The notes beneath the pieces were generated by a model. It was not told where the DNA came from. It ran no database searches and saw nothing but the letters and a program-made list of their open reading frames with translations. The translations under genes were made by a program, and so were the position numbers. DNA of 64,000 nt from a bacterium. Its GTDB lineage: Bacteria; Electryoneota; Electryoneia; Electryoneales; Electryoneaceae. Shown here one piece after another: positions 2,721-48,045 of the stretch (position 1 is the first letter of the stretch; every line of letters starts with the position of its first letter). The stretch spans positions 2,496,001 to 2,560,000 of the forward strand of contig OY769902.1 in the NCBI GenBank assembly GCA_963669175.1. The letters are read 5' to 3'.

Positions 2721-3272
2721 ATGATGAACAGAATTGTCCTGGAGAAAACAACTGAACAGGGTTGCCGGGTACAATTGGTTCAGGGTGATCTTACTGAAGA
2801 AGCTGTTGATGCCATCGTAAATGCAGCCAATTCACAGTTGGCGCATGGTGGTGGGGTTGCTGGCGCAATTGTCCGAAAAGGTGGACAAGTTATCCAGGAG
2901 GAATCCTGGAGAGTAGCGCCGGTCCCAGTTGGTCACGCAGTTATAACATCCGCTGGTTCTCTCAAAGCGCGCTATGTGATTCATACTGTTGGGCCTCGTG
3001 GGGGCGAGCCGCAACGAGAAGACAAACTCTCTTCTGCCGTGCAATCCTCACTCGAGTTGGCTGATAGCAAAGGGTTGACCACAATTAGTTTGCCTGCGAT
3101 TTCTACAGGAATTTTCGGTTACCCGATGGATGAAGCAGCCGAGGTCATTTTGCGGACAATCAGTAACTTTTTAGCTTATGAGCAAAACCGGTCAATAGAA
3201 GCAGTTCGTATTTGTATATTTGATGAGAATGCAGTTGATGTTTTCAGCCGGATCTGGGATTCAGCCTTTTAG
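2721..3272 (+). CDS. MacroD-type macrodomain protein (ADP-ribose / O-acetyl-ADP-ribose hydrolase)
   Basis: GDLT, AIVNAAN, GGGVAGAI, VIHTVGP and PAISTGIFG motifs. Confidence 0.92.
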   Translation: MMNRIVLEKTTEQGCRVQLVQGDLTEEAVDAIVNAANSQLAHGGGVAGAIVRKGGQVIQEESWRVAPVPVGHAVITSAGSLKARYVIHTVGPRGGEPQREDKLSSAVQSSLELADSKGLTTISLPAISTGIFGYPMDEAAEVILRTISNFLAYEQNRSIEAVRICIFDENAVDVFSRIWDSAF

Positions 3273-3584: not shown

Positions 3585-4907
3585 TTATCCGCGTACGGTT
3601 CCACGCAGGGTGAATCCACGCAGCTCATTGATTCTTACTGGTACAATTTGTCCTGGTGAAACCGGTCCGGGAACTACGACAACATGTCCCGCTGGGGTGC
3701 GCCCCATGTATTCGGACGGGTCTTTGGCGCTGGGGGTCTCGATCAAGACTTCCAGTTCACGGCCTATTTGCGCTTCCCTTTTCTTTCGTCCGCTTTCCCG
3801 CACAATCTTGCCCAATTTGGTCAAGCGTTCTATTTTGACCTGGTTGGGGACGTCATCCTCCAGCTTTGATGCTGCCGTACCGGGACGTTCTGAATAGCGA
3901 TAGACAAACGCATCATCATAGTCCGCCCAGCGTACCAGCGCTTCCGTAGCCTGGTAATCCTCATCCGTCTCTCCGGGGAATCCTACGATGATATCCGTAC
4001 TGAGGTAGAGGTCCGGAATTTTGCGGGCGGCTTCGACGAGGCAACGATAATGCGCATTGGTATACCCACGCCCCATTCGTTTGAGAATACGGTCGCTTCC
4101 GGCTTGCATCGGAAGATGAAGCTCCGGACATACCGGAGAACCGGAACCGAGAACATCCAGCAGTTTGGACGACAGGTCTTTGGGGTGGGACGTGATAAAA
4201 CGCAGTCGTTTTACTCCGTCTACACGAGCGGCCTGTTCCAGCAGCCAGCCGAAATCCTGACCGTCATCATGCCAGGAATTAACATTCTGGCCCAACAGGG
4301 TGACCTGTGGAAATCCCTGCGCAACGGCGTCTTCGATTTCGCGCAGGATCGCTTCAGCTTTCCGGTATCGTTCACGTCCTCGAGCATACGGCACCACGCA
4401 ATACGTGCAGAAGTTGTTGCAGCCCCGAGTAATCACGACCCAGGCATTAACACCGTCACGCCTCGCCGGGGCCAGCTCCTCATACAATTCATCCGATGGG
4501 CCTTCGGTCAGAACGACCGGGCCTTTGCGGTCAGACAGCGTGTTTAACAGTCCGGGCATGCTGCGGTAGGTATCAGGACCAAGCACCCAGTCCAGGAAAG
4601 GCAGACGTTCCGCGACCATGTCGCCGGTGTGTGAGGCCATGCAGCCAATTACACCGATGCGTACATCCGGGTTGGCATCTTTGTACTTCTGGAACTGGGA
4701 TATGTTGGTGATAGCACGTTCCTGCGCGTGTTCACGTACGATACAGGTGTTCACCAGGATGATTCCCGCTTCATCGGGATTCTCAGTACGTTGATACCCG
4801 TTTTCCTCGAGCATGGTGAGTACCAGCTCGCTATCGGCGAGGTTCATCTGGCATCCGTAGGTCTTGATGAAGACCTTACCGCTGTCTTGCTGTTGTATGC
4901 TGTTCAT
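3585..4907 (-). CDS. miaB: tRNA-2-methylthio-N6-dimethylallyladenosine synthase
   Basis: TYGCQMN, NTC, GC UPF0004 cysteines; radical SAM CNNFCTYC; C-terminal TRAM domain. Confidence 0.95.
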   Translation of the reverse strand: MNSIQQQDSGKVFIKTYGCQMNLADSELVLTMLEENGYQRTENPDEAGIILVNTCIVREHAQERAITNISQFQKYKDANPDVRIGVIGCMASHTGDMVAERLPFLDWVLGPDTYRSMPGLLNTLSDRKGPVVLTEGPSDELYEELAPARRDGVNAWVVITRGCNNFCTYCVVPYARGRERYRKAEAILREIEDAVAQGFPQVTLLGQNVNSWHDDGQDFGWLLEQAARVDGVKRLRFITSHPKDLSSKLLDVLGSGSPVCPELHLPMQAGSDRILKRMGRGYTNAHYRCLVEAARKIPDLYLSTDIIVGFPGETDEDYQATEALVRWADYDDAFVYRYSERPGTAASKLEDDVPNQVKIERLTKLGKIVRESGRKKREAQIGRELEVLIETPSAKDPSEYMGRTPAGHVVVVPGPVSPGQIVPVRINELRGFTLRGTVRG

Positions 4908-4989
4908 GGGGGCAAGGTAAGAAAACAGGACAAGAGAATGAGACGGAGAGAGCTGAACAGGGGAGGCCGGGAGCGCTCCACTTTTTCAC

Positions 4990-5341
4990 TGAATTTACAG
5001 GATGCACAGGATATCAAGGATGGACTGAATATTTCTCATTGTATAACAATCTGGGAAAATGGGGACTGCCACACTTTTCGCTTACGAATTGCGAGGAACA
5101 TTAACAGTATATCATTTTTCTGCATAGTCATTGCCTGCTGGAATTTTTTGCGAAAAGGTGGCTGTCCCAACATTTTCCTGTCCGGGATCATTCTGTAGCT
5201 GCAGGCGAAAAATCTGGTACAGTTACCTTTTCATTAATAATGGTTTGACTGTCCTGTATCCGAAGACATGAAAAGGTAACAGTCCCAATTTTCACCTGCT
5301 TTTCTACGCCTTCTTCCTTGTCCTGTTCATCCTGTATATTC
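4990..5341. repeat. AGGAT-type long inverted repeat (arms 4990-5024 and 5311-5341) enclosing two REPIN-like palindromes (5055-5177, 5205-5293)
   Basis: GAATTTACAGGATGCACAGGAT pairs with TCCTGTTCATCCTGTATATTC; inner units have GGGACTG/CAGTCCC-type arms. Confidence 0.75.
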
Positions 5342-5367
5342 TGCTATCAGGTGTGTACACTCGAGAG

Positions 5368-5397
5368 TTGAAATCGACAGCGAGAAGTGAGTATACT
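5368..5397 (+). promoter_or_regulatory. Putative sigma70 promoter for the ABC-F leader
   Basis: TTGAAA (5368-5373), 18-nt spacer, TATACT (5392-5397). Confidence 0.55.
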
Positions 5398-5408
5398 ATC
5401 CATACCAC

Positions 5409-5511
5409 AAGGAGGAGAGCGATGATAAACTGACAGTCCATTCAGTAAAAGGTAAACAGGATAGCCGGATTTGATCCGGTTATGTGGTGTTGTTTCCCGG
5501 AGGACTGTCGT
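5409..5511 (+). promoter_or_regulatory. Leader with tripeptide uORF Met-Ile-Asn and SD-sequestering pairing (putative translational attenuator)
   Basis: AAGGAGGA (5409-5416) precedes ATG ATA AAC TGA (5422-5433). GACAGTCC (5432-5439) is the reverse complement of GGACTGTC (5502-5509), which overlaps the main SD GGAGG (5499-5503). Inner hairpin at 5461-5483. Confidence 0.7.
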
Positions 5512-7014
5512 ATGTCTGCTCAACTTATTCTTACCGATTTGCATTTTTCCTATACCAGCGCTGTGGATGTCCTGGCAGATGTGTCCGTATGTCTGTCAAC
5601 CGGATGGACCGGTGTGATTGGACCCAACGGTAGCGGCAAGAGTACGTTGTTACGTATCCTGGCTGACGAGTTATCCGTTGCCCCCGGCATGCTGCAGAGA
5701 GTCCCGTCCGATATGGTAATCCGTTACTGCCCGCAACGAGTCAGCGAACTTGATGATGAGATTCGCACATTCTCGGAAAGCTGGGATGGACTGGCGCTAC
5801 GGATGATGGCCCAACTGGAGCTGGAACCTGATGACCTGGAGCGATGGGATACGCTTTCGCCGGGGGAACGCAAACGCTGGCAAATCGCTGCGGCGTTGCA
5901 TGTCCAACCGGAACTTCTTCTTCTGGATGAGCCGACCAACCATCTCGATACAGAGGCACGTAAACTCCTGTACAACACGCTGTCCGGGTACCGAGGTGTC
6001 GGTTTGCTGGTGTCGCATGACCGTGAATTTCTGGACAACTTGACGTATTCGACTATTCGTGTGCAACCCGGCGGGAAAGTGCAGCACTATTCCGGCTGCT
6101 ACAGCGATGCTCGCGAACAATGGCTGGCGGATGAGGCACATATTCGAAGTACACGTGAGCAATTGCAGTCCGAACGTCGCAAGCTGCGTAGACGTCTGGA
6201 AACGGCAAGCCGTTCGCGCGAGAAAGCGGAATCCAGCGTGAGTACCGGAAAGCGCATGAAGGGTAAACATGACACCGATGCCCGAAGCGTGATGGCAAAG
6301 GGAAGGGTGAAAAACGCCGAACAGAAACTGGCGCGTGGCATGTCCGTCGTGCGAGGGAAACTTGAACGTACTGAACGTGAAGTTGAGCAGTATCGTGTTG
6401 AAAAACAGATCGGACGTTCCGTGTTCGTGCTGGAAGAATCTGCCCCGAAACAGGACTTATTGACTCTGAGGCAGGACTTTGTATCGGTGGGTGATACTAT
6501 CCTGCTGCATAATGTGGATGTCCAGATTCAGCGCGACAGCCGTATTCACCTTCGTGGACCCAACGGATGCGGCAAAACGACCCTGATCAAAGAGTTGATA
6601 CAGGCGTCACAACTGCCGGAAAACCGGATACTCTTTCTCCCGCAGGAGCTTTCTGAAGATCAGATTGATGAAATGCTTCATGATGTCGCCCATATACCCG
6701 GGCAGGAAAAGGGACGCCTGATGCAGATTGTTGCGGCGTTGGGTGTGCCGCCGGAACGGTTGATGCTGTCGGGACGTCCTTCGCCGGGAGAAGCAAGGAA
6801 ATTGCATCTGGCGGTAGGGTTATCACGTCAGGCGTGGTTGCTGATTCTGGATGAACCGACCAATCACCTGGATCTGCCCAGCATAGAACGACTGGAAGAA
6901 GCGCTGGTGGACTACGCCGGCGCTATCCTGCTGGTGAGTCATGACGAGCGGTTTGCCCGGGGCATCACGGATTCAAACTGGAGTATCTATGGCAGGGCGC
7001 TGCACTTGGGGTAA
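5512..7014 (+). CDS. ABC-F family ATPase (two ABC domains, no TM segments), possibly ribosome-protection type
   Basis: Walker A GPNGSGKS and GPNGCGKT, two LDEPTNHLD, two VSHD, long basic helical linker. ATG 5512 follows GGAGG. Confidence 0.9.
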   Translation: MSAQLILTDLHFSYTSAVDVLADVSVCLSTGWTGVIGPNGSGKSTLLRILADELSVAPGMLQRVPSDMVIRYCPQRVSELDDEIRTFSESWDGLALRMMAQLELEPDDLERWDTLSPGERKRWQIAAALHVQPELLLLDEPTNHLDTEARKLLYNTLSGYRGVGLLVSHDREFLDNLTYSTIRVQPGGKVQHYSGCYSDAREQWLADEAHIRSTREQLQSERRKLRRRLETASRSREKAESSVSTGKRMKGKHDTDARSVMAKGRVKNAEQKLARGMSVVRGKLERTEREVEQYRVEKQIGRSVFVLEESAPKQDLLTLRQDFVSVGDTILLHNVDVQIQRDSRIHLRGPNGCGKTTLIKELIQASQLPENRILFLPQELSEDQIDEMLHDVAHIPGQEKGRLMQIVAALGVPPERLMLSGRPSPGEARKLHLAVGLSRQAWLLILDEPTNHLDLPSIERLEEALVDYAGAILLVSHDERFARGITDSNWSIYGRALHLG

Positions 7015-7021
7015 GATCTCT

Positions 7022-7175
7022 GGTTGAATTTACAGGATGATAAGGATGAAAAGGATAGCAAGGATAACAGAATAATTTTTACGATTATACATTACGAAAA
7101 TGAAAGGATGTTATCCTTAGAATTTGTTTTATCCTGTTTAATCCTTCCTATCCTGTTCATCCTGTGAATTCAACC
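7022..7175. repeat. AGGAT-type long inverted repeat between convergent genes
   Basis: GGTTGAATTTACAGGATGA ... TCATCCTGTGAATTCAACC with repeated AGGAT/ATCCT units; same family as 4990-5341. Confidence 0.8.
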
Positions 7176-7186
7176 TGTTGCGAGCA

Positions 7187-8401
7187 TCACGTTCTGAACA
7201 GGACATTTTCCTTCTTGAAAGTCCGCACGGTCAGCATGATTCCCACTGCTGCCCAGACCGTAGACGACAGAAGTGTATTCAGGATCATGGTCATGTCCGG
7301 GTTGCTCTCGATGATGTTCTTCATCGCCAGTGAAACATTCAGCACCGGAATCCAGGCTTCCTGGGCAGACATCTCCTTGCCGGGCGCCATGGACATCATG
7401 GCTGGGATGAAGATCAGCATCATCAGGGGGGAGAGGTAGGATTGCGCCTCACGCATGGACTTGGCGTAAATCGAGATTGTCATGAGCAGGGAAGAGAGGA
7501 ATGCCGTCAATGGAATCATCAGCAACAGGATCAGCAGGATACTGGTCATATCCAGCGAGAACGTGATGCCTTCCGGGATTTCCGAGGAAATGAGCATATC
7601 CATGCCGTAAGCCAGGGATATGGTCAGCGAGAAAATTGCGATCACAACGGTAATCAGGGAAACTGTCATGATGGTAAAGAACTTCCCGAGAACAATTTCC
7701 AGCCGTGATGCCGGGCTTACCAGCAATGTTTCCAGCGTGGACCGTTCCTTTTCACCCGCAGTAAGGTCCATGGCTGCATACATACCGCCGGTCAGAGTCA
7801 GCAGGATAATCATGTAGGGCATGAGTATTCCAAGCAGCCTGCCGGACATTTCTTTATCCGAAGCGGTGTTAATAATGGACCACTGGAAGGGCTCGAGTAT
7901 GGTTTGCGGCGCGCCGATGGCGTCCAGCTTCTGCTTGGACATCTCCTGCCGGATCAGCTCCAGAGCGTCTTCAACCCGTTCCCTGGCGATTAATGCCTGG
8001 TCATCACTTTTGTTTACGTAAAGTTTCAGACGGTCGCTGGTCGATTCAAGTATACCGACCGGACGTTCCGGCAGAATCAGCAATACCTGCAACGCGCCAT
8101 CTGCCAGCAGCATATGCGCGGCATCTTCCTGGGCCGGGTTAAAATCCTGGACCGTGGTATTGGGCGCAAGCATTTGCAGCTTCTGAACCAAAGCGGGTGA
8201 ATAGTTACCGTTGATGACACCGACTGTGTAGGTCCGCGATTCCAGGTCTTCCATGCTCTTGGTCATCACCAGACCCATGACCAGGTACACCAGTGGAATG
8301 GTAACCAGTGGCGCTACGATCATGGACAGCAGGGTGCGACGGTCACGCAGAATATCCAGAATCTCTTTTTTGTAGATTAAGACAAGGTTGGCAAACTTCA
8401 T
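7187..8401 (-). CDS. NatB-like ABC-2 transporter permease
   Basis: KKEILDILRDRRT N-terminus, GEKERSTLETLLVSP, one TM + large loop + further TMs. Confidence 0.85.
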   Translation of the reverse strand: MKFANLVLIYKKEILDILRDRRTLLSMIVAPLVTIPLVYLVMGLVMTKSMEDLESRTYTVGVINGNYSPALVQKLQMLAPNTTVQDFNPAQEDAAHMLLADGALQVLLILPERPVGILESTSDRLKLYVNKSDDQALIARERVEDALELIRQEMSKQKLDAIGAPQTILEPFQWSIINTASDKEMSGRLLGILMPYMIILLTLTGGMYAAMDLTAGEKERSTLETLLVSPASRLEIVLGKFFTIMTVSLITVVIAIFSLTISLAYGMDMLISSEIPEGITFSLDMTSILLILLLMIPLTAFLSSLLMTISIYAKSMREAQSYLSPLMMLIFIPAMMSMAPGKEMSAQEAWIPVLNVSLAMKNIIESNPDMTMILNTLLSSTVWAAVGIMLTVRTFKKENVLFRT

Positions 8402-11445: not shown

Positions 11446-11765
11446 GCGAAAAATGGGACTGTTACCTTTTCATGTCTTCGAATACAGGACACTCAAACCA
11501 TTATTAATGAAAAGGTAACTGTACCAGATTTTTCGCATGTATTCCAATTGATGCCAAGACTGGGTGGCCCGAGCCGCAAGTGATTCAATTCCCACTTCAT
11601 CGTTGTCAGTGAGTATTCCACTGATCCCAAGTTGGAAAATGTCGGTACAGCTACCTTTTCCGCTTATTCCTGAGGCCGCGGTTATGTATTACTCACAGAC
11701 AGCATGCGTAATTCACAATTGTCTACTTCTATACAAGCGGAAAAGAGTAGCAGTCCCCATTTTCC
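11446..11765. repeat. Two REPIN-like palindromes (11446-11536, 11634-11765), inverted copies of those at 5055-5293
   Basis: 11448-11536 equals the reverse complement of 5205-5293 with 3 mismatches in 89 nt; arms of 11634-11765 resemble the reverse complement of the 5055-5177 arms. Confidence 0.85.
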
Positions 11766-38896: not shown

Positions 38897-40981
38897 ATGG
38901 CAGACCAGTTTGAAAGACGTCAGGAAGACCAGCGCCCATTGAGCGTTCGGGACATCATGCAATCCGACCCCGCACTTGAAGACTCCTTTGACGGGGTGGA
39001 CGAAGGCACTCACGCCGCCGGTACCGAAGGGCACCTGCTTCAGCAGAAGATGCAGGCTGCAGCCGCCGCCAACCGTGCGTGGCTCGATGACAGCCCCTTC
39101 GACTTGAGCAAGCCGGAACCGCGCGCGCAGGTGGAGGAGAATGATTTTACCAGCGAAACTGAAGACTTCGGAGAGGTCGAGGAAGTCGAAGAGGAACAGG
39201 ATTTCGTGGGTGAGTTCGAAGAAGAAGAAACCACCGACGAAATCGAAGAACTTTCCTTTGACGAAGGCGACCTGTTCGAGTCTGAAGAAGACATGGACAA
39301 GGAATACCCGGTCGACGAGGATGACATCGACCTGGATATCACCTTGAGCGTGGGCGAAACGGAAGAAGAGGAAGAGGAAGTCCTCGACGCCGGTGAACTG
39401 GACACGGAAGACGATCTGGAAGCCTCACAGGAATTTGCGGACAGCCTGGAAGGCGATTTCACCGAAGCCGTAGAAGAAGCCGAACTGGAAGAAGAAGAGC
39501 TGGTCGAAGACGAGTTGGTTGAAGAAGAGGCCAGCGTTGCCGAGATCATGGAAAACGACGAAACGATTGAAGAAGAGCCGATGCCGGTTGATGAGATCAC
39601 TTCCCATGTGGAAGACGCGATGATGGGCCGTGTGGTGTCTCAGGACAGTTACATGACCGAAGAAGAGGAGAAAGAAGCGGTGGGCAATACTCTGCGTTTC
39701 GGATTCCAGGAGCAATCCGAGTACCGTGCACGGATGAAGGTGATCGGCGTGGGCGGCGCCGGGTCAAACGCCGTGGACAACATGATCTCCAGTAACCTGC
39801 TCGGGGTTGAATTCATCTGTCTGAACACCGACAGCCAGGCATTGGATGCCAGCCAGGCCTCCCGCAAAATGCAGATCGGCAAGGAAGTCACCCGTGGCCT
39901 GGGAGCCGGTGGCGATCCATGCGTAGGGCAGGCGGCTGCGGAAGAAGATGTGGAAATGATCAAGAAGATGCTGGAAGATACCGACATGGTCTTCGTCGCG
40001 GCGGGTATGGGCGGCGGCACCGGTACCGGCGCAGCCCCGATCGTAGCCGGACTGGCTCGTGAACGTGGTATCCTCACTGTCGGCATCGTAACCAAACCAT
40101 TCAGCTTCGAAGGCTCCAAGCGCACCAAGCGAGCCGTCGAAGGTATCAAGGCGATGAAGGACAATGTTGATACGCTGATCGTGATCCCGAACGACCGTCT
40201 GCTCCAGATCATCGATGAGAACGTGACCTTCAAGGCCGCGTTCCGTAAGGCGGACGAGGTCCTGTTCCAGGGCACCAAGGGCATCAGCGATATCATCAAC
40301 ACCCGTGGTCATGTCAACCTCGACTTCGCCGATGCCAAATCAGTCATGGCGAACAGTGGTGACGCCATCATGGGCATGGGAGTCGCGGAAGGCGAGAATC
40401 GTGCGGTCCTGGCGGCGGAAGCGGCCATCACCAGCCCATTGCTGGATAACCTGAGCATTGAAGGCGCGCAGGGCATCATTATCAATATTACCGGCAATGA
40501 GAAGCTGGGGATGCTGGAAGTCCAGAAGGCGGTTGACCTGGTGACACAGCGTGCCGGCGACAATGCGGACGTCTTCTTCGGTATCGTCAACGACGAAGGT
40601 ATGGGTGACAAGGTCAGCGTAACCGTAATCGCCACCGGTTTCGCCCGTAAGGATACCATCCGGACCAAGCGTGTCGATACAGAAGCGTCCGAGGGCTTTG
40701 GCCGTAGCCGCACCGAAACCACCTCCATCCATGACCGTTTCAACTTCGGGAACGGCAATGGTAACGGGAACGGAAATGGCAATGGCAACGGTAACGGAAA
40801 TGGTCACGGAAATGGCAACGGCCACAGCGAAAAGCCGACCAAGTTCCTCCGTGTCGAAGCGGACGAAGAAGATGTCGTTTTGGATGAAGTGGTCGATATC
40901 GATGTGGAAAACATGGATAAAGATGACCATGATCTGCCCGCTTTCCTGCGCCGGAATAAGAAGAACAACTGGAGAAGGTAG
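38897..40981 (+). CDS. ftsZ: Cell division protein FtsZ with long acidic N-terminal extension
   Basis: VIGVGGAGSNA, GGGTGTG, NLDFAD, C-terminal DLPAFLRR. ATG 38897 follows AGGAG; possible second start GTG 39680. Confidence 0.93.
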   Translation: MADQFERRQEDQRPLSVRDIMQSDPALEDSFDGVDEGTHAAGTEGHLLQQKMQAAAAANRAWLDDSPFDLSKPEPRAQVEENDFTSETEDFGEVEEVEEEQDFVGEFEEEETTDEIEELSFDEGDLFESEEDMDKEYPVDEDDIDLDITLSVGETEEEEEEVLDAGELDTEDDLEASQEFADSLEGDFTEAVEEAELEEEELVEDELVEEEASVAEIMENDETIEEEPMPVDEITSHVEDAMMGRVVSQDSYMTEEEEKEAVGNTLRFGFQEQSEYRARMKVIGVGGAGSNAVDNMISSNLLGVEFICLNTDSQALDASQASRKMQIGKEVTRGLGAGGDPCVGQAAAEEDVEMIKKMLEDTDMVFVAAGMGGGTGTGAAPIVAGLARERGILTVGIVTKPFSFEGSKRTKRAVEGIKAMKDNVDTLIVIPNDRLLQIIDENVTFKAAFRKADEVLFQGTKGISDIINTRGHVNLDFADAKSVMANSGDAIMGMGVAEGENRAVLAAEAAITSPLLDNLSIEGAQGIIINITGNEKLGMLEVQKAVDLVTQRAGDNADVFFGIVNDEGMGDKVSVTVIATGFARKDTIRTKRVDTEASEGFGRSRTETTSIHDRFNFGNGNGNGNGNGNGNGNGNGHGNGNGHSEKPTKFLRVEADEEDVVLDEVVDIDVENMDKDDHDLPAFLRRNKKNNWRR

Positions 40982-41082
40982 AATGGTAGTGGATCGTTTC
41001 ATTCGAACCGGTGAATAGATCCACTGAAGGATCGGCATGCGTGCCAGTTCCTGATTTTTCCTTCCTGCTGCTGGAAAAAGTC

Positions 41083-41114
41083 GGCACCCCATCTGAAAAG
41101 GTGGGGTGTTTTTT
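41083..41114 (+). terminator. Intrinsic terminator of the dcw operon
   Basis: GCACCCCATCT-GAAA-AGGTGGGGTGT followed by TTTTT. Confidence 0.85.
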
Positions 41115-41220
41115 AGTATTTCTTCTATCACTTCTACCTACATCTGTCATCCCCGACTTGATCCTGTCTCTTGGACTTGATCGGGGATCTCGAGGTGGGA
41201 GCGAGAATGCTGACTTCGAA

Positions 41221-41459
41221 CTGCTTTGTCTCATGCAAAGACGCGAAGGCAGAAAAACATGTCTCACGCAAAGACGCAAAGGCGCAAAGGAAAAGACGCA
41301 AAGGAAAAGAAAAGAAGGGAAAGGAGGGAAAGAAGGGAAAGAAGGGAAAGAAGGGAAAGAAGGGAAAGAAGTGAAAAGAATGAAAAACCTATTGGCCCCG
41401 CCGGCTTGAAGAACGCCGTAGCTTGCGGAGGCGGCTGCCCGGCGGTGGTCTATTTTAAA
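41221..41459. repeat. Composite repeat copy 1: CGCAAAG tract, purine microsatellite, ~65-nt structured core
   Basis: Near-identical to 45626-45844; core also at 50141-50200. Confidence 0.85.
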
Positions 41460-41658
41460 TGAAGCTAGTAGTCCACTTGTATTGAGGACTTGAAACGACT
41501 CGTCTCAAGCAAAGACGCAAAGGAAGAGACGCAAAGAACGCAAAGGAAGAAAAACATGTTTCACGTAGAGCCGCAAAGAACGCAAAGGAAAAGAAATGAA
41601 GACAATGTTCTTTTCCCGGACCGGAGGCGGTCCGGGAGACATTGCCATAATCCCTACC

Positions 41659-44600
41659 TTACTTCACCAGGATCGCCTTGTAGGATTCATTGATATTCGT
41701 ATCGGTCCTGATCGTAATGAAGTACACACCAGAAGATAAATCAGCCGCTGAATAATCAACATTCAGCCTGCCAACTTCCCGCACCATATTTTTTATCGTA
41801 TCAATTTTTTGCCCCAAGCTATTGTATACTTCTATGGTAACAGTTGACAATTTCGGTAAATCATATTGGATTTTTATGCTGCTGTTAAAAGGATTAGGAT
41901 ATAACGAACAATTATACACAAGGGGTAAATTGTGGTTATTGTCTGAAATGCCATCATCATAAGAATTTAAATAATGTATACTGCTACTTCTATAAGAATC
42001 TATCATGTCAGAGATGTAATCAAGGTTAATAAATTCTTCTTCAATATAATAAAACCAATCAATTTTTGTAACATAATTTTCTATTGTATCACTCACTCGA
42101 TTGTAAATTAAATTAGACATCATTATGCTCATATCTGAGTCAAGATTGAGTTCAGTGACATCATATGGTGGATAAATAAGATTGCCATCAATATAATAGC
42201 GCACTTTGTTGTTTTGATAGGATATGCCAAAATAATGATAATCATTGTCTAGAATGGAAATAGATGTATCGATATGTGAAAAATGATCTCCACTGGTTTC
42301 AATGAAGAGTATATTGTCTTCGATCTCGTTAAAACCATTGCTGTAAAACTCATAGTTTAATATAGAGCGTTGAAAGGTAACAGTATTATCATAATAAGCA
42401 AAAAGGTTTTGTGTGAATTCATCAGTATAATCATCGTTGGATTGGAAAGATGCTTTAAAGACATAAGTGCCACGACAGAAAGGACTTTCTAGTGTTCTTA
42501 TCATTGAATTGTAGGTGTCGTTATCATTAGTGCCGCTTGTAGACTTCAGATTGAGTACTCTATCTTCATTCTCTTCGGTTATATAAACATTGCTTTCTGA
42601 ATACAAATACCCACCTGCACCTGGATTATCGCTGGTGTTACAAACATGCCACCCGTGATCGGCTAGTTCTGAATAGGGATTGTCAATGTTGCAGTAGAAA
42701 TTATCATAAAATATGTTGGCCTCGTCGGGAGAATCATAGCAGAAAACATTGAAAAATTCTGTTGCGGATTCATCGAACGAATTAGCTGCTGTTGCAGTGA
42801 TGAGGTAGTTACCCTTTGCATTAAAGGTATGGGTGAAAGATGATTCAACAGAATCTTCACCACTAAAATCAGCGGTATCTTGTACTGCATTATCAATCGC
42901 CCAGGCGATCTCTTCGATGCCAAAGGGCGAAGACGCAGCAATATCGAATGTGATCTCAGTCCCTTCACTTACATTGACATACTTGTCCTGATTGTCCAAA
43001 CTGATGGAAAAGCAATCATAATCAATAACAGTAACTTCCCAGGATACAACGCTGTCCAGGCCTTCTTCATCATAGACAACCGTATGGACATCAAAAGTCC
43101 CTTCTGACTCGAACGTATACGACCAGACGTCCCTACTCCGCGCCCCTGCCGCCTCATGCTGGTCCATGAGTTCATCCTCAAGGTACCATTCGAAAGACAC
43201 GAGATTACTGTCCGAATCACTTGCGCCTACAGTAAAGGACAGGGATCTACCCATACCTGACGTTGTAGAAGAGGCTTCCGGTTCAACACGCCAGATTACA
43301 GGATTCGAGTTCTGGACCGTGATTTCCCAGGCAATCATCTCCGAACATTCATAACTGTCATAGACAATCGCGTGGACATCAAATGTTCCTTCTGACTCAA
43401 ATGTATACGACCAGGAGTCTACATCATCATCGCTCGTAACATTATGAGTTGCCATTACTTGATCACCTAGATACCATTGTATGAAATCCAGATTACCATC
43501 AACATCGCTGACGCCTGCGGTAAAAGTTGCAGAACAACCATAGCCTGAAGATGAGGCAAACTCTTCCGGCGCAATTCTCCAAATCTCAGGAGAGGTATTC
43601 TGGACATTGATTTCCCAGGTAAGTGAAACCTGTTCTTCCAAAGTGTCAAAGACATAAGCGTGGATGAAGTAAGTCCCTTCAAACATGAATGAAAGGGCCC
43701 ACGTATCTTCGTCTTCATCTCCAGTCGCGTTATGCGTACGCATCAGTTGGTCATTCAGGTACCATCTGAAGCAGTCGAGATTGCCCTCCAGATCACTGGC
43801 GCTGACGGTAAAAGTGAGTTCCTGCCCAGGAAACAGGTTGATGGATTCATCTTCAGGATTCACACGACAGATCTCGGGAGGAGTGTTTTGGACGTGGATT
43901 TCCCAGGAAATTGAAACCTGTTCTTCTAAAGTATCATAGATATAGGCGTGAATAGTGTAGGTTCCCTCAGTTTCAAACGTGTGCGACCAGGAATCTTCGT
44001 CTTCTGCACCTGCTGTCTCATGAGTGACCACAAGCTGATCATCCACGTACCATTCGAAGTTCTCAAGATTCCCGTCATCATCGCTTGCGCCAACCGTAAA
44101 GGTACACTCCTGGCCGGGTAACAAGTCCACATTGCCTTGTTCAGGATCAATCCGCCAAATCTCGGGCGCAACATTCTGGACAGTAACTTGCCAGGACGTC
44201 ATTAACTGATTATCCAAACCGTCATAAACATAGGCGTAGACAGTGTATGTGCCTTCATTCTCAAATGTTTGTGACCAGGAGTCTTCATCTTCATCGCCTG
44301 CGGCATCATGATTGGCCACCAATTCATCATCCAGGTACCATTCAAAGTGGTCAAGGGTACCTGTTTCAACACTTGCACCGGTAGTAAAAGAACACACCTG
44401 ACCGGGGATCAGTTGAACATTCCTTGATTCAGGATTTTCACGCCAGATTCTGAAGGGACGCTGTTCGACATTGATCTCCCAACAGGTTATTGCAACAGTA
44501 CTACCTTCAGAGTAAACATGAGTATAGACGTGTGTAACCTCTTCAGTATCAAATGTATGCGACCAGGTATCTTCAGCTTCATTCCCAGTTGCATCATGCC

Positions 44601-45384
44601 TGGCCATAGGAGTATAAAACAGATACCAGTCGAAGTAACAAAGCTCATGTTCATCAACGCTGGCAAGGGCAGTAAAACTGATCTCCTCACCGGGATTAAC
44701 ATCTACAGATGCTTCTACTGGATAGTCTCGAAGAACTACAGGGGAGTCGTCCTGGACGATGATCTCCCATCCATCGGTTTGACTCATACCCAAAGAATCA
44801 TAAGCATAAACATCAAGTTCATAGGTGCCCTCAGTATCAAAGGTTAAGGTCAGGGTATCATTCAAGGAGTATCGGTGCGTGAAGTCAGGAAGAGATGTAT
44901 GAATTAACTGCTCGTCCAGGTACCATTCGACGCGATCAATATTTCCGTCACCATCAACAGTCACTATTTCAAACATCATGGGTTGATCAGGTGCAAGGCT
45001 GAAAGTAGGCTCCATGGGCATTCCAACCATACAGTGAGGTGTGCCATTATGAATAACACTGACCCACCAGCTGGTTGAATCAGACTCGCCATTATCGTTG
45101 TATGCCATGCAGCATATTATTGGGATAGCAGTTTCGGTGAATGTGTGCGTCCAGCTATCCTGGTCATTGTTGCCACTAAGATCGTGATCCGCCTGTAAAT
45201 CACCATCAATATACCATTCGCAGTGGTCTAATCCGATCGCGTCACTTATGTTGACAGTAAAAGTGATTGGAACATTTTCGTAAAATAATGGATTTCCACT
45301 TAATGGATAAACCTTTGTAACCTCGGTACTGTAGACGGTAGAAGTAACGAAGAAAAGAAAAAGCAGGGTGAATAATTTACGCAT
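41659..45384 (-). CDS. Secreted protein: about nine tandem ~95-aa Ig/PKD-like repeats, GH16-like domain, C-terminal sorting domain
   Basis: Repeat FTVGASD.DGNL..FEWYLDD...SWS.TFE.EGTY.V.AYVYD...WEI.VQN; jelly-roll-like domain from NIFYDNF; YPNPFNS CTD. Confidence 0.8.
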   Translation of the reverse strand: MRKLFTLLFLFFVTSTVYSTEVTKVYPLSGNPLFYENVPITFTVNISDAIGLDHCEWYIDGDLQADHDLSGNNDQDSWTHTFTETAIPIICCMAYNDNGESDSTSWWVSVIHNGTPHCMVGMPMEPTFSLAPDQPMMFEIVTVDGDGNIDRVEWYLDEQLIHTSLPDFTHRYSLNDTLTLTFDTEGTYELDVYAYDSLGMSQTDGWEIIVQDDSPVVLRDYPVEASVDVNPGEEISFTALASVDEHELCYFDWYLFYTPMARHDATGNEAEDTWSHTFDTEEVTHVYTHVYSEGSTVAITCWEINVEQRPFRIWRENPESRNVQLIPGQVCSFTTGASVETGTLDHFEWYLDDELVANHDAAGDEDEDSWSQTFENEGTYTVYAYVYDGLDNQLMTSWQVTVQNVAPEIWRIDPEQGNVDLLPGQECTFTVGASDDDGNLENFEWYVDDQLVVTHETAGAEDEDSWSHTFETEGTYTIHAYIYDTLEEQVSISWEIHVQNTPPEICRVNPEDESINLFPGQELTFTVSASDLEGNLDCFRWYLNDQLMRTHNATGDEDEDTWALSFMFEGTYFIHAYVFDTLEEQVSLTWEINVQNTSPEIWRIAPEEFASSSGYGCSATFTAGVSDVDGNLDFIQWYLGDQVMATHNVTSDDDVDSWSYTFESEGTFDVHAIVYDSYECSEMIAWEITVQNSNPVIWRVEPEASSTTSGMGRSLSFTVGASDSDSNLVSFEWYLEDELMDQHEAAGARSRDVWSYTFESEGTFDVHTVVYDEEGLDSVVSWEVTVIDYDCFSISLDNQDKYVNVSEGTEITFDIAASSPFGIEEIAWAIDNAVQDTADFSGEDSVESSFTHTFNAKGNYLITATAANSFDESATEFFNVFCYDSPDEANIFYDNFYCNIDNPYSELADHGWHVCNTSDNPGAGGYLYSESNVYITEENEDRVLNLKSTSGTNDNDTYNSMIRTLESPFCRGTYVFKASFQSNDDYTDEFTQNLFAYYDNTVTFQRSILNYEFYSNGFNEIEDNILFIETSGDHFSHIDTSISILDNDYHYFGISYQNNKVRYYIDGNLIYPPYDVTELNLDSDMSIMMSNLIYNRVSDTIENYVTKIDWFYYIEEEFINLDYISDMIDSYRSSSIHYLNSYDDGISDNNHNLPLVYNCSLYPNPFNSSIKIQYDLPKLSTVTIEVYNSLGQKIDTIKNMVREVGRLNVDYSAADLSSGVYFITIRTDTNINESYKAILVK

Positions 45385-45625
45385 GGTAGCCTCCCAAGAA
45401 TGATATCAATAAATAAGTGTAAATATGATCCTGAGATAAAAAGAGTGATAAATATCACAACATGAACAAAATCTACATCATGCTTTCAAAGAGAGTCATT
45501 CGTAACCCTTTAGCATGATAAAGCTTTTCCGCGCTGACAACGTGATGAATGCTCAAGCTGAACATCAAAGGTAGCTTTATCCGCTATTCCCGGGCAGTTC
45601 AAGATTGCCCAGAATTGTTTTCAGT

Positions 45626-45844
45626 CTGCTTTATCTCACGCAAAGACGCGAAGGCAGAAAAAAATGTCTCACGCAAAGACGCAAAGGCGCAAAGGAAAAG
45701 ACGCAAAGGAAAAGAAAAGAAAAGAAGGGAAAGAATGGAAAAGAATGGAAAAGAATGAAAAAGAATGAAAAACCTATTGGCCCTGCCGGCTTGAAGAACG
45801 CCGTAGCTTGCGGAGGCGGCTGCCCGGCGGTGGTCTATTATAAT
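45626..45844. repeat. Composite repeat copy 2
   Basis: Same order and orientation as 41221-41459; differs mainly in the purine tract. Confidence 0.85.
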
Positions 45845-46165
45845 TCAACAAAGGAATAAGTCCACCTGTTTTGATCCACGCATATCAAACTGAAGTAGAA
45901 TTTTCCTTGCTCTCATTCCTTCGAAGGAAGGAATCCAGGCAAGCCGGAAAGAGCGGTGACCCCTGCATTTCCAGTTATACTGAATTAGCTGGATGTGACA
46001 CCAAGCATGTCCCCGGAAAGCACGCTGAAGCGCGCTCACAATAGTGAGGACCACAGGACACCCCGGCTGAAGCCGGGTGCTAAGAGGAGCAGGCTAAAGC
46101 CAGCTAATACAAGATGTTGAAGTGAAATTGCAGGTGAGTGATGGATACTGGTTAGAATGTTTGAG

Positions 46166-46264
46166 AAATTCTGCCACAGCTTGTAGCAGATTTAAGCCAT
46201 CCATTTCTGCAACAGGCTGTTGCAGTTTTCGTGTGGACATTCTGCAGCAACCTGCTGCAGAATT
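46166..46264. repeat. Three ~26-bp CTGCAACAG-type palindromes
   Basis: ATTCTGCCACAGCTTGTAGCAGAT, CTGCAACAG-G-CTGTTGCAG, ATTCTGCAGCA-ACC-TGCTGCAGAAT. Confidence 0.7.
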
Positions 46265-46348
46265 GTAAGATCTTGTGAAAAAAAGATATAGGGGGCGTTT
46301 GGCCCGACTGCTTGCTGTCGGGATCGCCCACATTTAATACACTGCTGG

Positions 46349-47074
46349 TTAGTTATCTCTTTCTTCACTTTTTTCACTGCCTACTTTTTTCACTCTTTTC
46401 ACTCCGCAGTACAACAGAAGGAAGGAGAGCGCCGCCGCCGTACCGATAGTCGCGCCCAATTCCACGCTCGTAGCCAGCCAGCCCAGTACCCCCAGCGTAA
46501 CCGTGATCACCAGCCCGGCAACCAGGGATTGCGCCACACGTGTTCCCATCCCACACGCCACCCCGATCGGAATGCCGAACGCCATGCCAGTCGCTGACCC
46601 AAGGATCAGATTGCCAAGAGTACTCTCTACCACGATCCCCGATACGCTGGCAAGCACGCTAAAGACCACGCCAAACGTCACACATCCGACCACGCTGAAC
46701 GCGATCCCGGCCATCACGCCACGCACCCGTCCCAACGCCACGCTCACCAGGCTGATAACCACGCCCACCGTCATCCCGAACGCCATGCCCCACAACGCGC
46801 CCCGGACCATCTCACGGAATGTATGCACCCACCCGAACTGATGCCCGATACTCAATACGACAGCGCTGATCAGTATCGTCACCACAAAAGGAGTAATGGT
46901 CTGATGCTTGATGAAGGACACCCATAGCGCGAACAGTTCTTTCCTGTTCCCATGCGGATGGGTTGCAAGGAATGCTTCTGGCTGAAGCAGCAGGTGAAGT
47001 AGAGGATGGTTGGATGGTGGTTGCAATACGGTTTTATCCTCGATCATGTAGATCCTGAAATTCTGAATGTCCAA
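46349..47074 (-). CDS. Gly-rich multi-pass membrane protein, possibly 3'-truncated
   Basis: Repeated GMAFG/GIAF/GVTFG hydrophobic segments; tail encoded by a low-complexity GTGAAAA tract; alternative start ATG 47047. Confidence 0.55.
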   Translation of the reverse strand: MDIQNFRIYMIEDKTVLQPPSNHPLLHLLLQPEAFLATHPHGNRKELFALWVSFIKHQTITPFVVTILISAVVLSIGHQFGWVHTFREMVRGALWGMAFGMTVGVVISLVSVALGRVRGVMAGIAFSVVGCVTFGVVFSVLASVSGIVVESTLGNLILGSATGMAFGIPIGVACGMGTRVAQSLVAGLVITVTLGVLGWLATSVELGATIGTAAALSFLLLYCGVKRVKKVGSEKSEERDN

Positions 47075-47082
47075 ACTTTACT

Positions 47083-47844
47083 TTATTCTTCAATTTCTTT
47101 TTCATCATCCATATATGAATATCGCCATGATAGATGTCTACAAAGTCCTGTTAGATCAGGATAAATAACAGAATTATTAATACCCATCATGTGTAAATTC
47201 TTTCGGAATATCCAATGATCAGATTTGTTAATTTTAATTTTTATCATCTTGCTAGAAAACTTTTTATGTCTTTCTAAACGTACAATTTTTCCAGATTCAC
47301 TTATTTTATGTACTGTAAAAAGACCAGATTGCGAAGATATTCTATTTGTTATTATTTTTGGTCTTACAATTTTTGTCGTTTTTTTATTTGCCAGTGGATT
47401 ATCTTCCGAAGGATCTTCTATCCAGTCGCTATGATCTGACTTCAGCATCCATACGACTCCATATTCAGTGCCTTCAAAAAAGTCAGGACTGTCACAAACT
47501 GCAAACCATAATGCAACAAGAGAACTGTATGTCCAATCCAATAATCTTGTTGGTAATCCATAGTGTTGTGCTAACGCTAGTGAATCCCAGTCATCGTTAA
47601 TATGATTAGGTAAAAATGGAAGACTTGTTCTAATAAATTCTTTAAACATAATCTTTTCAACTTCAAATATCTCTCCTCTTGGTTTCATTCGTGCTAATTT
47701 AGGTAATAATGGCCAGTCTGAGCTCTGTCCTCTGAAAATAAAATCTACATGATTTCCTTTACTGGATTCCTTGCTTTTTTCAGATTCACATAATTCAATA
47801 AAATCTGCAATTGAATCGACGTCTTCTTCTTTGTAAAAAATCAT
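47083..47844 (-). CDS. FRG domain protein (AT-rich)
   Basis: FIFRGQS, LLPKLAR, AQHYGLPTRLLDWT, ALWFA, RISSQSGLF, IYPDL. Confidence 0.92.
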   Translation of the reverse strand: MIFYKEEDVDSIADFIELCESEKSKESSKGNHVDFIFRGQSSDWPLLPKLARMKPRGEIFEVEKIMFKEFIRTSLPFLPNHINDDWDSLALAQHYGLPTRLLDWTYSSLVALWFAVCDSPDFFEGTEYGVVWMLKSDHSDWIEDPSEDNPLANKKTTKIVRPKIITNRISSQSGLFTVHKISESGKIVRLERHKKFSSKMIKIKINKSDHWIFRKNLHMMGINNSVIYPDLTGLCRHLSWRYSYMDDEKEIEE

Positions 47845-48045
47845 GTTAAGCCCTTTCTAATCTTGTTGTTGTCAATTATCCATGATGAAAGATAGTTCTG
47901 TGGAATAGTGCTGAATCACTATCTTATCAACAATGTATTTATGTTCTGGTCAGACTAGCAACGGAATCCGCTAAAGTATCTTCTTTATGTGTCAACTGAT
48001 GGTTAGTCACTAAAAGGTTCAACCTAATACCGGTTTCAACCAGAA

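Follow-up and report, generated by a model that had tools for sequence, protein, structure and literature searches.

A candidate terminator-free translational attenuator with a Met-Ile-Asn leader upstream of an ARE-like ABC-F gene in an Electryoneota bacterium

Inducible ribosome protection by ABC-F ATPases has so far been worked out in Firmicutes and Actinomycetota, and several of the inducible genes carry very short upstream open reading frames (uORFs). Three-codon uORFs precede vmlR of Bacillus subtilis (ARE2; Met-Ile-Asn, MIN), are5sc (MLV), cplR (MR[I/M]) and vmlR2 (MK[L/Q]), all inducible by lincosamides, streptogramin A and pleuromutilins (PMC9226507, PMC12421871, PMC10201436). The uORF of the inducible gene lsaA (MAGN) is similarly short (PMC10201436). 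The three drug classes are reported to hold ribosomes at start codons (PMC9226507, PMC12421871). Here we describe a related arrangement on the forward strand of contig OY769902.1 (assembly GCA_963669175.1, an Electryoneota bacterium), within a stretch of 64,000 nt (contig positions 2,496,001 to 2,560,000) that we call the window and number from its first letter. A MIN uORF at 5422-5433 stands there before an ABC-F ATPase gene at 5512-7014, and its RNA is predicted to pair with the ribosome-binding site (RBS) of that gene. On balance, we favour the reading that the region attenuates translation of an ARE-like ABC-F gene in a ribosome-dependent manner and without a terminator.

The described systems differ in how the uORF is coupled to the main gene. 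In vmlR, the main Shine-Dalgarno (SD) sequence lies in a hairpin, and the published trigger is a uORF ribosome held by lincomycin or retapamulin; the leader also uses an intrinsic terminator, an anti-antiterminator/antiterminator pair and NusG pausing (PMC9226507). The uORF variants MDN and MDK equal MIN and MRK is less effective (PMC9226507), so the peptide matters somewhat but is not unique. In cplR of the Firmicute Clostridioides difficile (uORF MRI), the SD-sequestering hairpin doubles as a poly-U terminator, and translational attenuation alone is enough to keep the gene off (PMC10201436). The ARE5 genes tiaA and are5sc of Streptomyces, a Gram-positive actinomycetote, encode chromosomal intrinsic factors with the short uORFs MVGDDDISG and MLV, respectively; their inducers are lincosamide, streptogramin A and pleuromutilin drugs, the factors regulate their own expression by feedback, and an anti-terminator mechanism is described for them (PMC12421871). 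The leaders of ermC, cat and cmlA, which regulate a methylase, an acetyltransferase or an exporter, use no terminator: a drug-stalled ribosome on a leader ORF with its own SD frees a hairpin-buried RBS, by drug-specific arrest on nascent peptides of 8-19 residues (PMC5418344).

The window leader shares with vmlR a MIN uORF with its own SD before an Arm-less, long-linker ABC-F gene: AAGGAGGA (5410-5417), 4-5 nt 5' of the AUG, then ATG ATA AAC TGA (Met-Ile-Asn-stop), compared to AUGAUUAAC in vmlR. Both window elements had been noted in a preliminary description of this DNA and are present as described; the duplex of AAGGAGGA with the anti-SD has an energy of -11.4 kcal/mol. That description had also given MIN, subject to verification, as the leader peptide of both vmlR and vga(A), which is right for vmlR (PMC9226507) and finds a further instance in a Peribacillus locus described below, whereas the vga(A)-LC leader reads MKIL. 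Folding of 5398-5530 gave a minimum free energy (MFE) of -43.3 kcal/mol, compared to -31.5 ± 3.6 kcal/mol for dinucleotide shuffles (z -3.27), of which 1 in 200 folded as well. The pair list of this fold contains a helix of 27 pairs with small bulges between 5417-5443 and 5499-5521. Its 5' strand holds the entire uORF, the stop codon and 10 nt downstream, and its 3' strand the main SD GGAGGA (5499-5504), the main AUG (5512-5514) and codons 2-4, so that the main RBS is predicted to be hidden in free RNA. The centre of the helix is the octamer GACAGTCC (5432-5439), the exact reverse complement of GGACTGTC (5502-5509), a perfect pairing already picked out in the preliminary description. An inner hairpin at 5459-5485, with about 10 pairs and a GCCGGA/UCCGGU core, caps the long helix, and the uORF SD stays mostly outside it.

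The effect of a ribosome on the uORF was modelled by forbidding pairing over 31 nt, with the P site placed on the uORF AUG or on its Asn codon. Under this footprint the MFE changed from -43.3 to about -27 kcal/mol, a loss of about 16 kcal/mol of structure, and the mean probability of being unpaired rose from 0.05 to 0.23 for the main SD and from 0.35 to 0.67 for the main AUG. This is the fold comparison that the preliminary description had proposed, and uORF occupancy raises main SD accessibility in it. As a control for chance, the leader portion 5398-5485 alone was shuffled 2000 times. A uORF of at most 15 codons with an SD of -8 kcal/mol or better arose in 124 shuffles, and in seven of the 2000 this was combined with a pairing to the main RBS of -20 kcal/mol or better.

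In contrast to vmlR, the window has no intrinsic terminator with alternative hairpins between uORF and gene; its uORF pairs with the main RBS directly. The scan of 4900-7400 returned no terminator-like site (2.6 expected) and no U-tract lies 3' of the inner hairpin, in line with the preliminary remark that the leader lacks a U-tract terminator. Transcription attenuation was rejected on the empty scan; as the terminator is absent, control would be exerted at translation only. The protein is about 28% identical to that of vmlR and does not group robustly with it. Given the low identity, the lack of robust grouping and the different leader design, we regard the two leaders as analogous rather than homologous.

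Compared to cplR, the window likewise combines a three-codon uORF with a sequestered SD (PMC10201436), in a host that is not a Firmicute. A leader ORF with its own SD and an RBS sequestration that a ribosome can prevent, the ermC/cat/cmlA arrangement, are found in the predicted folds of both the window and its Sorangium counterpart (below). By contrast to those leaders, the window ORF has only three codons and precedes an ABC-F gene; with an ORF this short, arrest would have to come at or just after initiation. The hairpins of cat and cmlA are of a two-strand design and that of ermC of a four-segment design. In a two-strand design, as predicted here, any uORF-bound ribosome would expose the main RBS.

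A promoter-like pair, TTGAAA (5368-5373) and TATACT (5392-5397) with an 18-nt spacer, lies upstream on the same strand, where the preliminary description had placed a promoter; it is a consensus match only. It was the top match in the scan of 4900-7400 (10 of 12 positions), which found four promoter-like sites in all, against 2.2 ± 1.3 in shuffles. Usual sigma-70 geometry would put the transcript start at about 5403-5407. The preliminary description had further proposed that 5401-5409 can pair alternatively with 5483-5490. The complementarity is real, with eight pairs including one G-U between 5402-5409 and 5483-5490, but the arm is doubtful and a functional role is unsupported. It forms only in constrained folds with the uORF region blocked; it lies at or before the implied transcript start, so that most of it would be absent from the RNA or form its extreme 5' end; a ribosome whose P site holds the uORF AUG would reach back to about 5407; and the Sorangium locus has no counterpart of it.

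For comparison, genome contigs were scanned with two peptide patterns, one of them common to all ABC-Fs, and 80 loci among the matches listed were kept. The only orthologue among these 80, at 49% identity, is locus L001 of Sorangium cellulosum So ce26, on which the conservation check suggested earlier could be made. Its leader has a strong SD, AAGAGGAGA (2846-2854), a five-codon uORF with a GTG start (MKISS, 2863-2880), and a helix between 2862-2883 and 2980-3005 that covers the main SD (2984-2988) and the main ATG (2995). The helix core is a perfect complement of 12 nt. With its strong SD, short uORF and helix covering the main SD and AUG, this leader repeats the layout of the window in an orthologue, built from an unrelated helix sequence. 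The uORF, SD and pairing criteria applied to the window were reached in 25 of 2000 shuffles of this leader, and under the footprint the probability that its main SD is unpaired rose from 0.00 to about 0.4.

These comparisons bear on two simpler accounts of the leader. One is an accidental mini-ORF with accidental complementarity in a 5' untranslated region. Neither short ORFs nor 8-nt complements are unusual, the promoter scan did not exceed background, and no Rfam family was matched at the gathering score across the whole window; in 5200-5650 the sole match was a miRNA at E 6.4, which is chance level. Against coincidence stand the fold z-score, the rarity of the combined features in both sets of shuffles and the recurrence of the layout in Sorangium. 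As the two occurrences are independent, we consider coincidence very improbable. The other account takes the mini-ORF as no stall sensor at all: it would be a constitutive enhancer or standby site that opens the helix, or the helix would sense temperature, a protein or a small RNA. With two strands only, any ribosome on the uORF would free the main RBS, the very strong uORF SD lies outside the helix, and the peptide is not conserved between the window and Sorangium, all of which would suit such an opener. However, in two distant lineages whose sequences differ, a strong SD leads a very short ORF that lies precisely on the sequestering strand, and the same association is found at experimentally proven ABC-F attenuators, which makes this account unlikely, though clearly less so than coincidence.

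The upstream regions of 86 ABC-F loci were surveyed by scanning 260 nt for a strong-SD uORF of at most 15 codons. The controls were 79 non-clade loci, with starts set by a simple rule and classes assigned by best NCBIfam hit; L006, for which no start codon was found, was dropped, and six annotated plasmid genes were added. With classes so assigned, strong-SD uORFs were found at both loci of the present clade, both ARE5 loci (TiaA orthologues), four of five plasmid ARE loci, none of five ARE4-like and none of two Bacillota ARE-like loci, 2 of 39 YheS/EttA/Uup/YbiT loci and 2 of 31 unclassified ones. Strong pairing of the uORF with the main RBS was seen at both clade loci, both ARE5 loci and one EttA locus (L062), whose near-identical twin L065 lacks it.

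The scan, although blind, recovered MVGDDDISG/CG in the ARE5 loci L044 (2834-2863) and L080 (2822-2851); MVGDDDISG is the named tiaA leader peptide, tiaAL (PMC12421871). It also recovered the published leader MTASMRLK upstream of msr(A). It missed the vmlR-type Peribacillus locus L028, where ATG ATT AAC TAA (MIN, 2850-2861) follows a weak-scoring SD, AGAAGGG, and is itself followed by a hairpin and a U-tract, as described for vmlR (PMC9226507). At the vga(A)-LC locus (L083), the uORF ATG AAA ATT CTG TAG (MKIL, 64-78) precedes a terminator hairpin and a U-tract. The ARE1 genes msr(A), msr(E) and vga(A)-LC, at plasmid loci L081-L083, each have a short SD-led leader ORF upstream; compared to the window, the msr(A) and vga(A)-LC peptides are longer or different, and vga(A)-LC has a terminator where the window has none. 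The Sorangium peptide MKISS and vga(A)-LC MKIL have an M-K-I start in common.

In the mechanism that we propose, a brief ribosome stay on the three-codon uORF would let the helix re-form and leave the ABC-F gene almost unexpressed. If a ribosome were held on the uORF start codon or immediately past it, it would cover about 5407-5443 and keep the 5' strand of the helix unavailable, whereupon the main SD and AUG would become free and the ABC-F protein would be made. The holding signal might be a lincosamide, a pleuromutilin or streptogramin A acting at the uORF start codon. The protein would then bind the ribosomal E site with its long linker towards the peptidyl-transferase centre and release the block, which would also reset its own leader and so give negative feedback. 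We infer translation of the uORF, antibiotic induction, the resistance effect and the feedback; the predicted structure with its statistics, the orthologous leader and the build of the protein are what the analysis shows. The stalled-ribosome reading given in the preliminary description is partly supported. The uORF-plus-pairing layout, the footprint effect, the vmlR parallel and the ARE1-like build found for the protein speak for it, whereas the alternative pairing, the vga(A) parallel and membership of a named ARE group are not supported.

Several observations about the leader weigh against an antibiotic-responsive attenuator. The promoter at 5368-5397 is a plausible guess and, like the transcript start, predicted only. 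Under the footprint, the main SD of the window is freed only in part (0.23), because a weak local hairpin competes, and in Sorangium the main AUG does not become more accessible (0.67 without the footprint, 0.58-0.63 with it). The strong uORF SD might load ribosomes so often that the helix would rarely close and basal expression would be high. A single orthologous leader was compared, and its peptide is MKISS, so MIN is not clade-wide; its recurrence in the window may be convergence, luck or coincidence.

The gene itself (5512-7014, forward strand) encodes a protein of 500 aa. Its two ABC domains are joined by a long linker (about residues 200-305) whose tip is conserved, and it lacks both the Arm and a C-terminal extension. 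The ORF listing starts the frame at an earlier ATG, 5482; the N-termini of homologues (consensus MSxQxxLSxLSFSYSS) and a 500-aa database entry fit 5512. Pfam matched ABC_tran twice and no other domain, and no Pfam family matched the minus-strand ORF at 5347-5544. The protein is an ABC-F ATPase by its motifs: G37-K43, D139-E140, H169, G349-K355, D447-E448 and H477 are invariant in 41 sequences, and both catalytic glutamates are present. The most conserved linker stretch is its tip (STGKRMKGxxDxDARSMAAKGR), in which R248, D254, D256 and R258 are invariant in the same number of sequences.

The domain plan was compared by spans, taking the first nucleotide-binding domain (NBD1) from the Walker-A1 Lys to the Walker-B1 Glu and the linker from the Walker-B1 Glu to the Walker-A2 Lys. 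In the window protein NBD1 spans 97 residues, the linker 215 and the tail 53. Its clade is uniform (21 of 22 rows readable): NBD1 is 97 in all, the linker 212-227 with a median of 215, and the tail about 53. The same plan was seen in 127 of 149 further cluster representatives (median linker 214); for the remaining 22, one or both of the motifs could not be located. By contrast, the seven EttA loci have an NBD1 of 137-145, a linker of 174-176 and a tail of 86-91; YheS has 132-139, a median of 176 and about 180, respectively, and the Uup linker is 176. Overall, linkers span 174-177 in EttA, Uup, YbiT and most YheS, and NBD1 spans 132-145 in EttA, YheS and YbiT. The clade linker is thus about 39 residues longer than that of EttA. 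Linkers of ARE1-5 are about 30 aa longer than those of EttA, a feature not universal among AREs, and Arm loss is most drastic in ARE1/2 (PMC6723617). The window protein has the long linker of ARE1-5, and it and all 21 readable clade rows have the reduced Arm of ARE1/ARE2.

The domain plan is almost identical to that of the ARE1 proteins Msr(A) (NBD1 84, linker 209, tail 54; 488 aa), Msr(E) (82, 210 and 58; 491 aa) and Vga(A)-LC (62, 206 and 113), and NBD1 spans 62-88 in Vga(A)-LC, Msr and the Peribacillus protein. OptrA has spans of 149, 176 and 168. Despite the similar plan, Msr and Vga are only 27-30% identical to the window protein, and in the full trees the clade does not nest among them. 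The nearest named relatives are the ARE5 proteins, with 32% identity over the full length and the sister position in two trees; judging by alignment gaps, ARE5 retains the Arm insertion, unlike the window protein.

A FastTree phylogeny of 100 rows recovered the clade as monophyletic (support 100), with a long stem of 1.4, and as sister to the pair L044/L080 (support 96), identified as ARE5 via the supplement of PMC6723617. In an IQ-TREE analysis of 56 rows under the posterior mean site frequency (PMSF) model, the stem is 2.0 and the ARE5 sister support 99. When ARE5 was left out, the clade grouped first with L067 and next with the set of Vga, Msr and L028 (supports 85, 77 and 97); when the clade was left out, ARE5 joined an ARE4-like group (support 94). 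In every tree the neighbours of the clade were ARE-type groups, never EttA, Uup, YheS or YbiT; a place in a housekeeping ABC-F clade, which the preliminary description had named as a refuting outcome, was not seen.

The clade is large and set apart. It comprises at least 149 further representatives of 50%-identity clusters at 315 bits or more, whereas outside it the best plasmid-borne ARE-type proteins reach at most 191 bits (tblastn) and a TiaA orthologue 182 bits. The same tblastn search found no orthologue in the plasmid collection, the best match being a Streptomyces sequence at 32.5% identity. The closest relatives of the window protein come from Gemmatimonadota metagenome-assembled genomes (about 63%) and Myxococcota (about 49%), and the clade as a whole occurs in Myxococcota, Gemmatimonadota and candidate phyla of the FCB group. 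These phyla are diderm and not Firmicutes. Literature searches, which did not extend to subscription journals or bioRxiv supplements, turned up no paper that describes the clade or deals with leaders of ABC-F genes in either Myxococcota or Gemmatimonadota.

The ARE-type assignment of the protein meets counterevidence of its own, and membership of a named ARE group did not hold up. The best NCBIfam model, NF000355 ("ribosomal protection-like ABC-F"), scores the protein at 325 bits against a cut-off of 380, and the Msr and Vga models at 225 (cut-off 680) and 200 (cut-off 725), so that no ARE model is reached; the protein falls in no named ARE subfamily and passes no curated cut-off. Housekeeping loci of the YheS, EttA and Uup groups also score about 330-515 bits with NF000355, mostly more than the 325 of the window protein, and we rejected this best hit as evidence for an ARE because the model is unspecific. 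Across L002-L080, many plain YheS, EttA and Uup genes score 380-515 bits, at or above the cut-off. As the model scores housekeeping genes highly, names derived from it are no evidence of a resistance function. Scores against PDB sequences (YheS 151, ExpZ 150, Uup 149, EttA 141 and MsrE 129 bits) do not separate ARE from housekeeping relatives, and this search was likewise discarded as a test. ExpZ is a former designation of VmlR-type proteins. In the supplement of PMC6723617, two proteins of myxobacteria with the clade motif are labelled YdiF, a grouping of unclassifiable sequences in that study. In addition, the deep position of the clade is unstable, with a stem of 1.4-2.0 and a sister that shifts as taxa are removed; long-branch attraction among fast-evolving ABC-Fs is possible, and both tree programs warn that long branches meet.

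The neighbours of the ABC-F gene in the window are housekeeping genes, including miaB and an ABC-2 permease, and no synteny is shared with the Sorangium locus, whose neighbours are DJ-1/PfpI and peptidase S46. The G+C content of the gene (0.544; 0.575 at third codon positions) is similar to that of its neighbours, for which reason recent horizontal transfer was rejected by composition.

A housekeeping role for the whole system is the alternative that we take most seriously, as a possible though improbable one. The same switch would respond to a different signal: the protein would be a rescue or first-peptide-bond factor under homeostatic autoregulation, and the signal would be general trouble in initiation, early elongation or termination, e.g., a shortage of release factor 2 (RF2) at UGA, or starvation. 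The clade is chromosomal, of native composition, and spread over many myxobacterial genera and Gemmatimonadota; it lacks a mobile or biosynthetic-cluster setting, and its neighbourhoods share no synteny. This fits core physiology as well as it fits intrinsic resistance, and to that extent counts against an antibiotic sensor. The conserved linker tip suggests one conserved target, the window and Sorangium uORFs both end in UGA, the earlier classification left the clade in the YdiF catch-all (PMC6723617), and housekeeping ABC-Fs are reported to resolve stalls. On the other side, leaders of this kind are rare at the surveyed housekeeping loci (2/39), and the linker is 39 aa longer than in housekeeping ABC-Fs, with the Arm absent as in ARE1/2. 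Moreover, three-codon uORFs have so far been documented for drug-inducible ABC-Fs (PMC9226507, PMC10201436, PMC12421871). We keep a ribosome-dependent attenuator that answers to antibiotics as the preferred reading.

The surroundings of the gene contain further features. The window has a G+C content of 51%. The divergent neighbour is miaB, whose closest named relatives are in Candidatus Electryonea (63%), Calditrichota (60%) and KSB1 (about 47%). Its frame on the minus strand (3585-4907) is open for 440 codons. The database copy is shorter, with 420 aa (95% of the query), so that translation probably begins at the ATG at 4847; this start would leave about 520 nt between miaB and the promoter-like site. 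The region 40001-48000 has a G+C content of 0.44-0.46, compared to 0.51 overall and 0.55 on either side, and may be a foreign island.

Two copies of a palindromic element resembling a miniature inverted-repeat transposable element (MITE), at 4990-5344 and 7024-7173, flank the ABC-F gene and its leader. The copies have identical end 15-mers (4990-5004 = 7025-7039 and 5321-5335 = 7151-7165), and the terminal inverted repeats at 4991-5011 and 5321-5341 are 90% complementary. In the 64 kb, the end motif with at most two mismatches occurs at these four ends and once more at 7525; with at most three mismatches there are 12 matches, against 1.9 expected. The first copy stops 24 nt 5' of the predicted -35 hexamer. 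The flanking copies may mark a movable cassette, or may be merely intergenic repeats.

Within the first palindromic element lies one copy of an 89-nt dispersed repeat (5205-5293 and 11448-11536, inverted, 96.6% identical), with weaker flanking matches (5054-5079 to 11740-11765, and 5152-5178 to 11634-11660) and a strong hairpin (5210-5234/5268-5292). The repeat includes a look-alike of the uORF, ATG AAA AGG TAA followed by CAGTCC (5268-5285), which agrees with the true uORF segment at 14 of 18 positions. We rejected it as a part of the leader because it has no usable SD and lies inside a dispersed repeat; in 750 nt, a match of this extent is roughly what would arise by chance. The pyrimidine stretch CCTTCTTCCTTGT (5300-5321), on the right-hand side of the palindromic element, is complementary to the uORF SD region 5407-5428 (about 12 of 13 with G-U), which would be relevant only in transcripts starting upstream of the predicted promoter.

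Each component of the proposed system is known elsewhere: short uORF sensors of ABC-F genes, sequestration of an RBS (PMC5418344) and the translational layer of cplR (PMC10201436). What is new is the family and the lineage, namely an unnamed, ARE-built ABC-F clade of diderms with a terminator-free, one-helix sensor. A wider proposal can be put forward only tentatively: that this clade is a native ARE-type ribosome-protection family of diderms with a minimal sensor, that the MIN uORF seen here has converged with that of vmlR on the same class of antibiotics acting at the peptidyl-transferase centre, and that in this genome the gene may form part of a movable cassette.

The leader is close to the smallest conceivable drug sensor, with one helix, one three-codon ORF and no terminator. 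It would offer a clean system in which to ask what tunes a tripeptide ORF to initiation-stalling drugs, and whether MIN is special. Should the switch instead serve a physiological signal, it would give a handle on the role of one uncharacterised ABC-F group. Current resistance-gene models miss the clade, which stays below the NCBIfam cut-offs and falls into a catch-all in the published classification. Myxococcota, among which the clade is found, are prolific antibiotic producers. If the attenuator reading is true, soil and sediment diderms would hold a large, unannotated reservoir of ribosome-protection factors.

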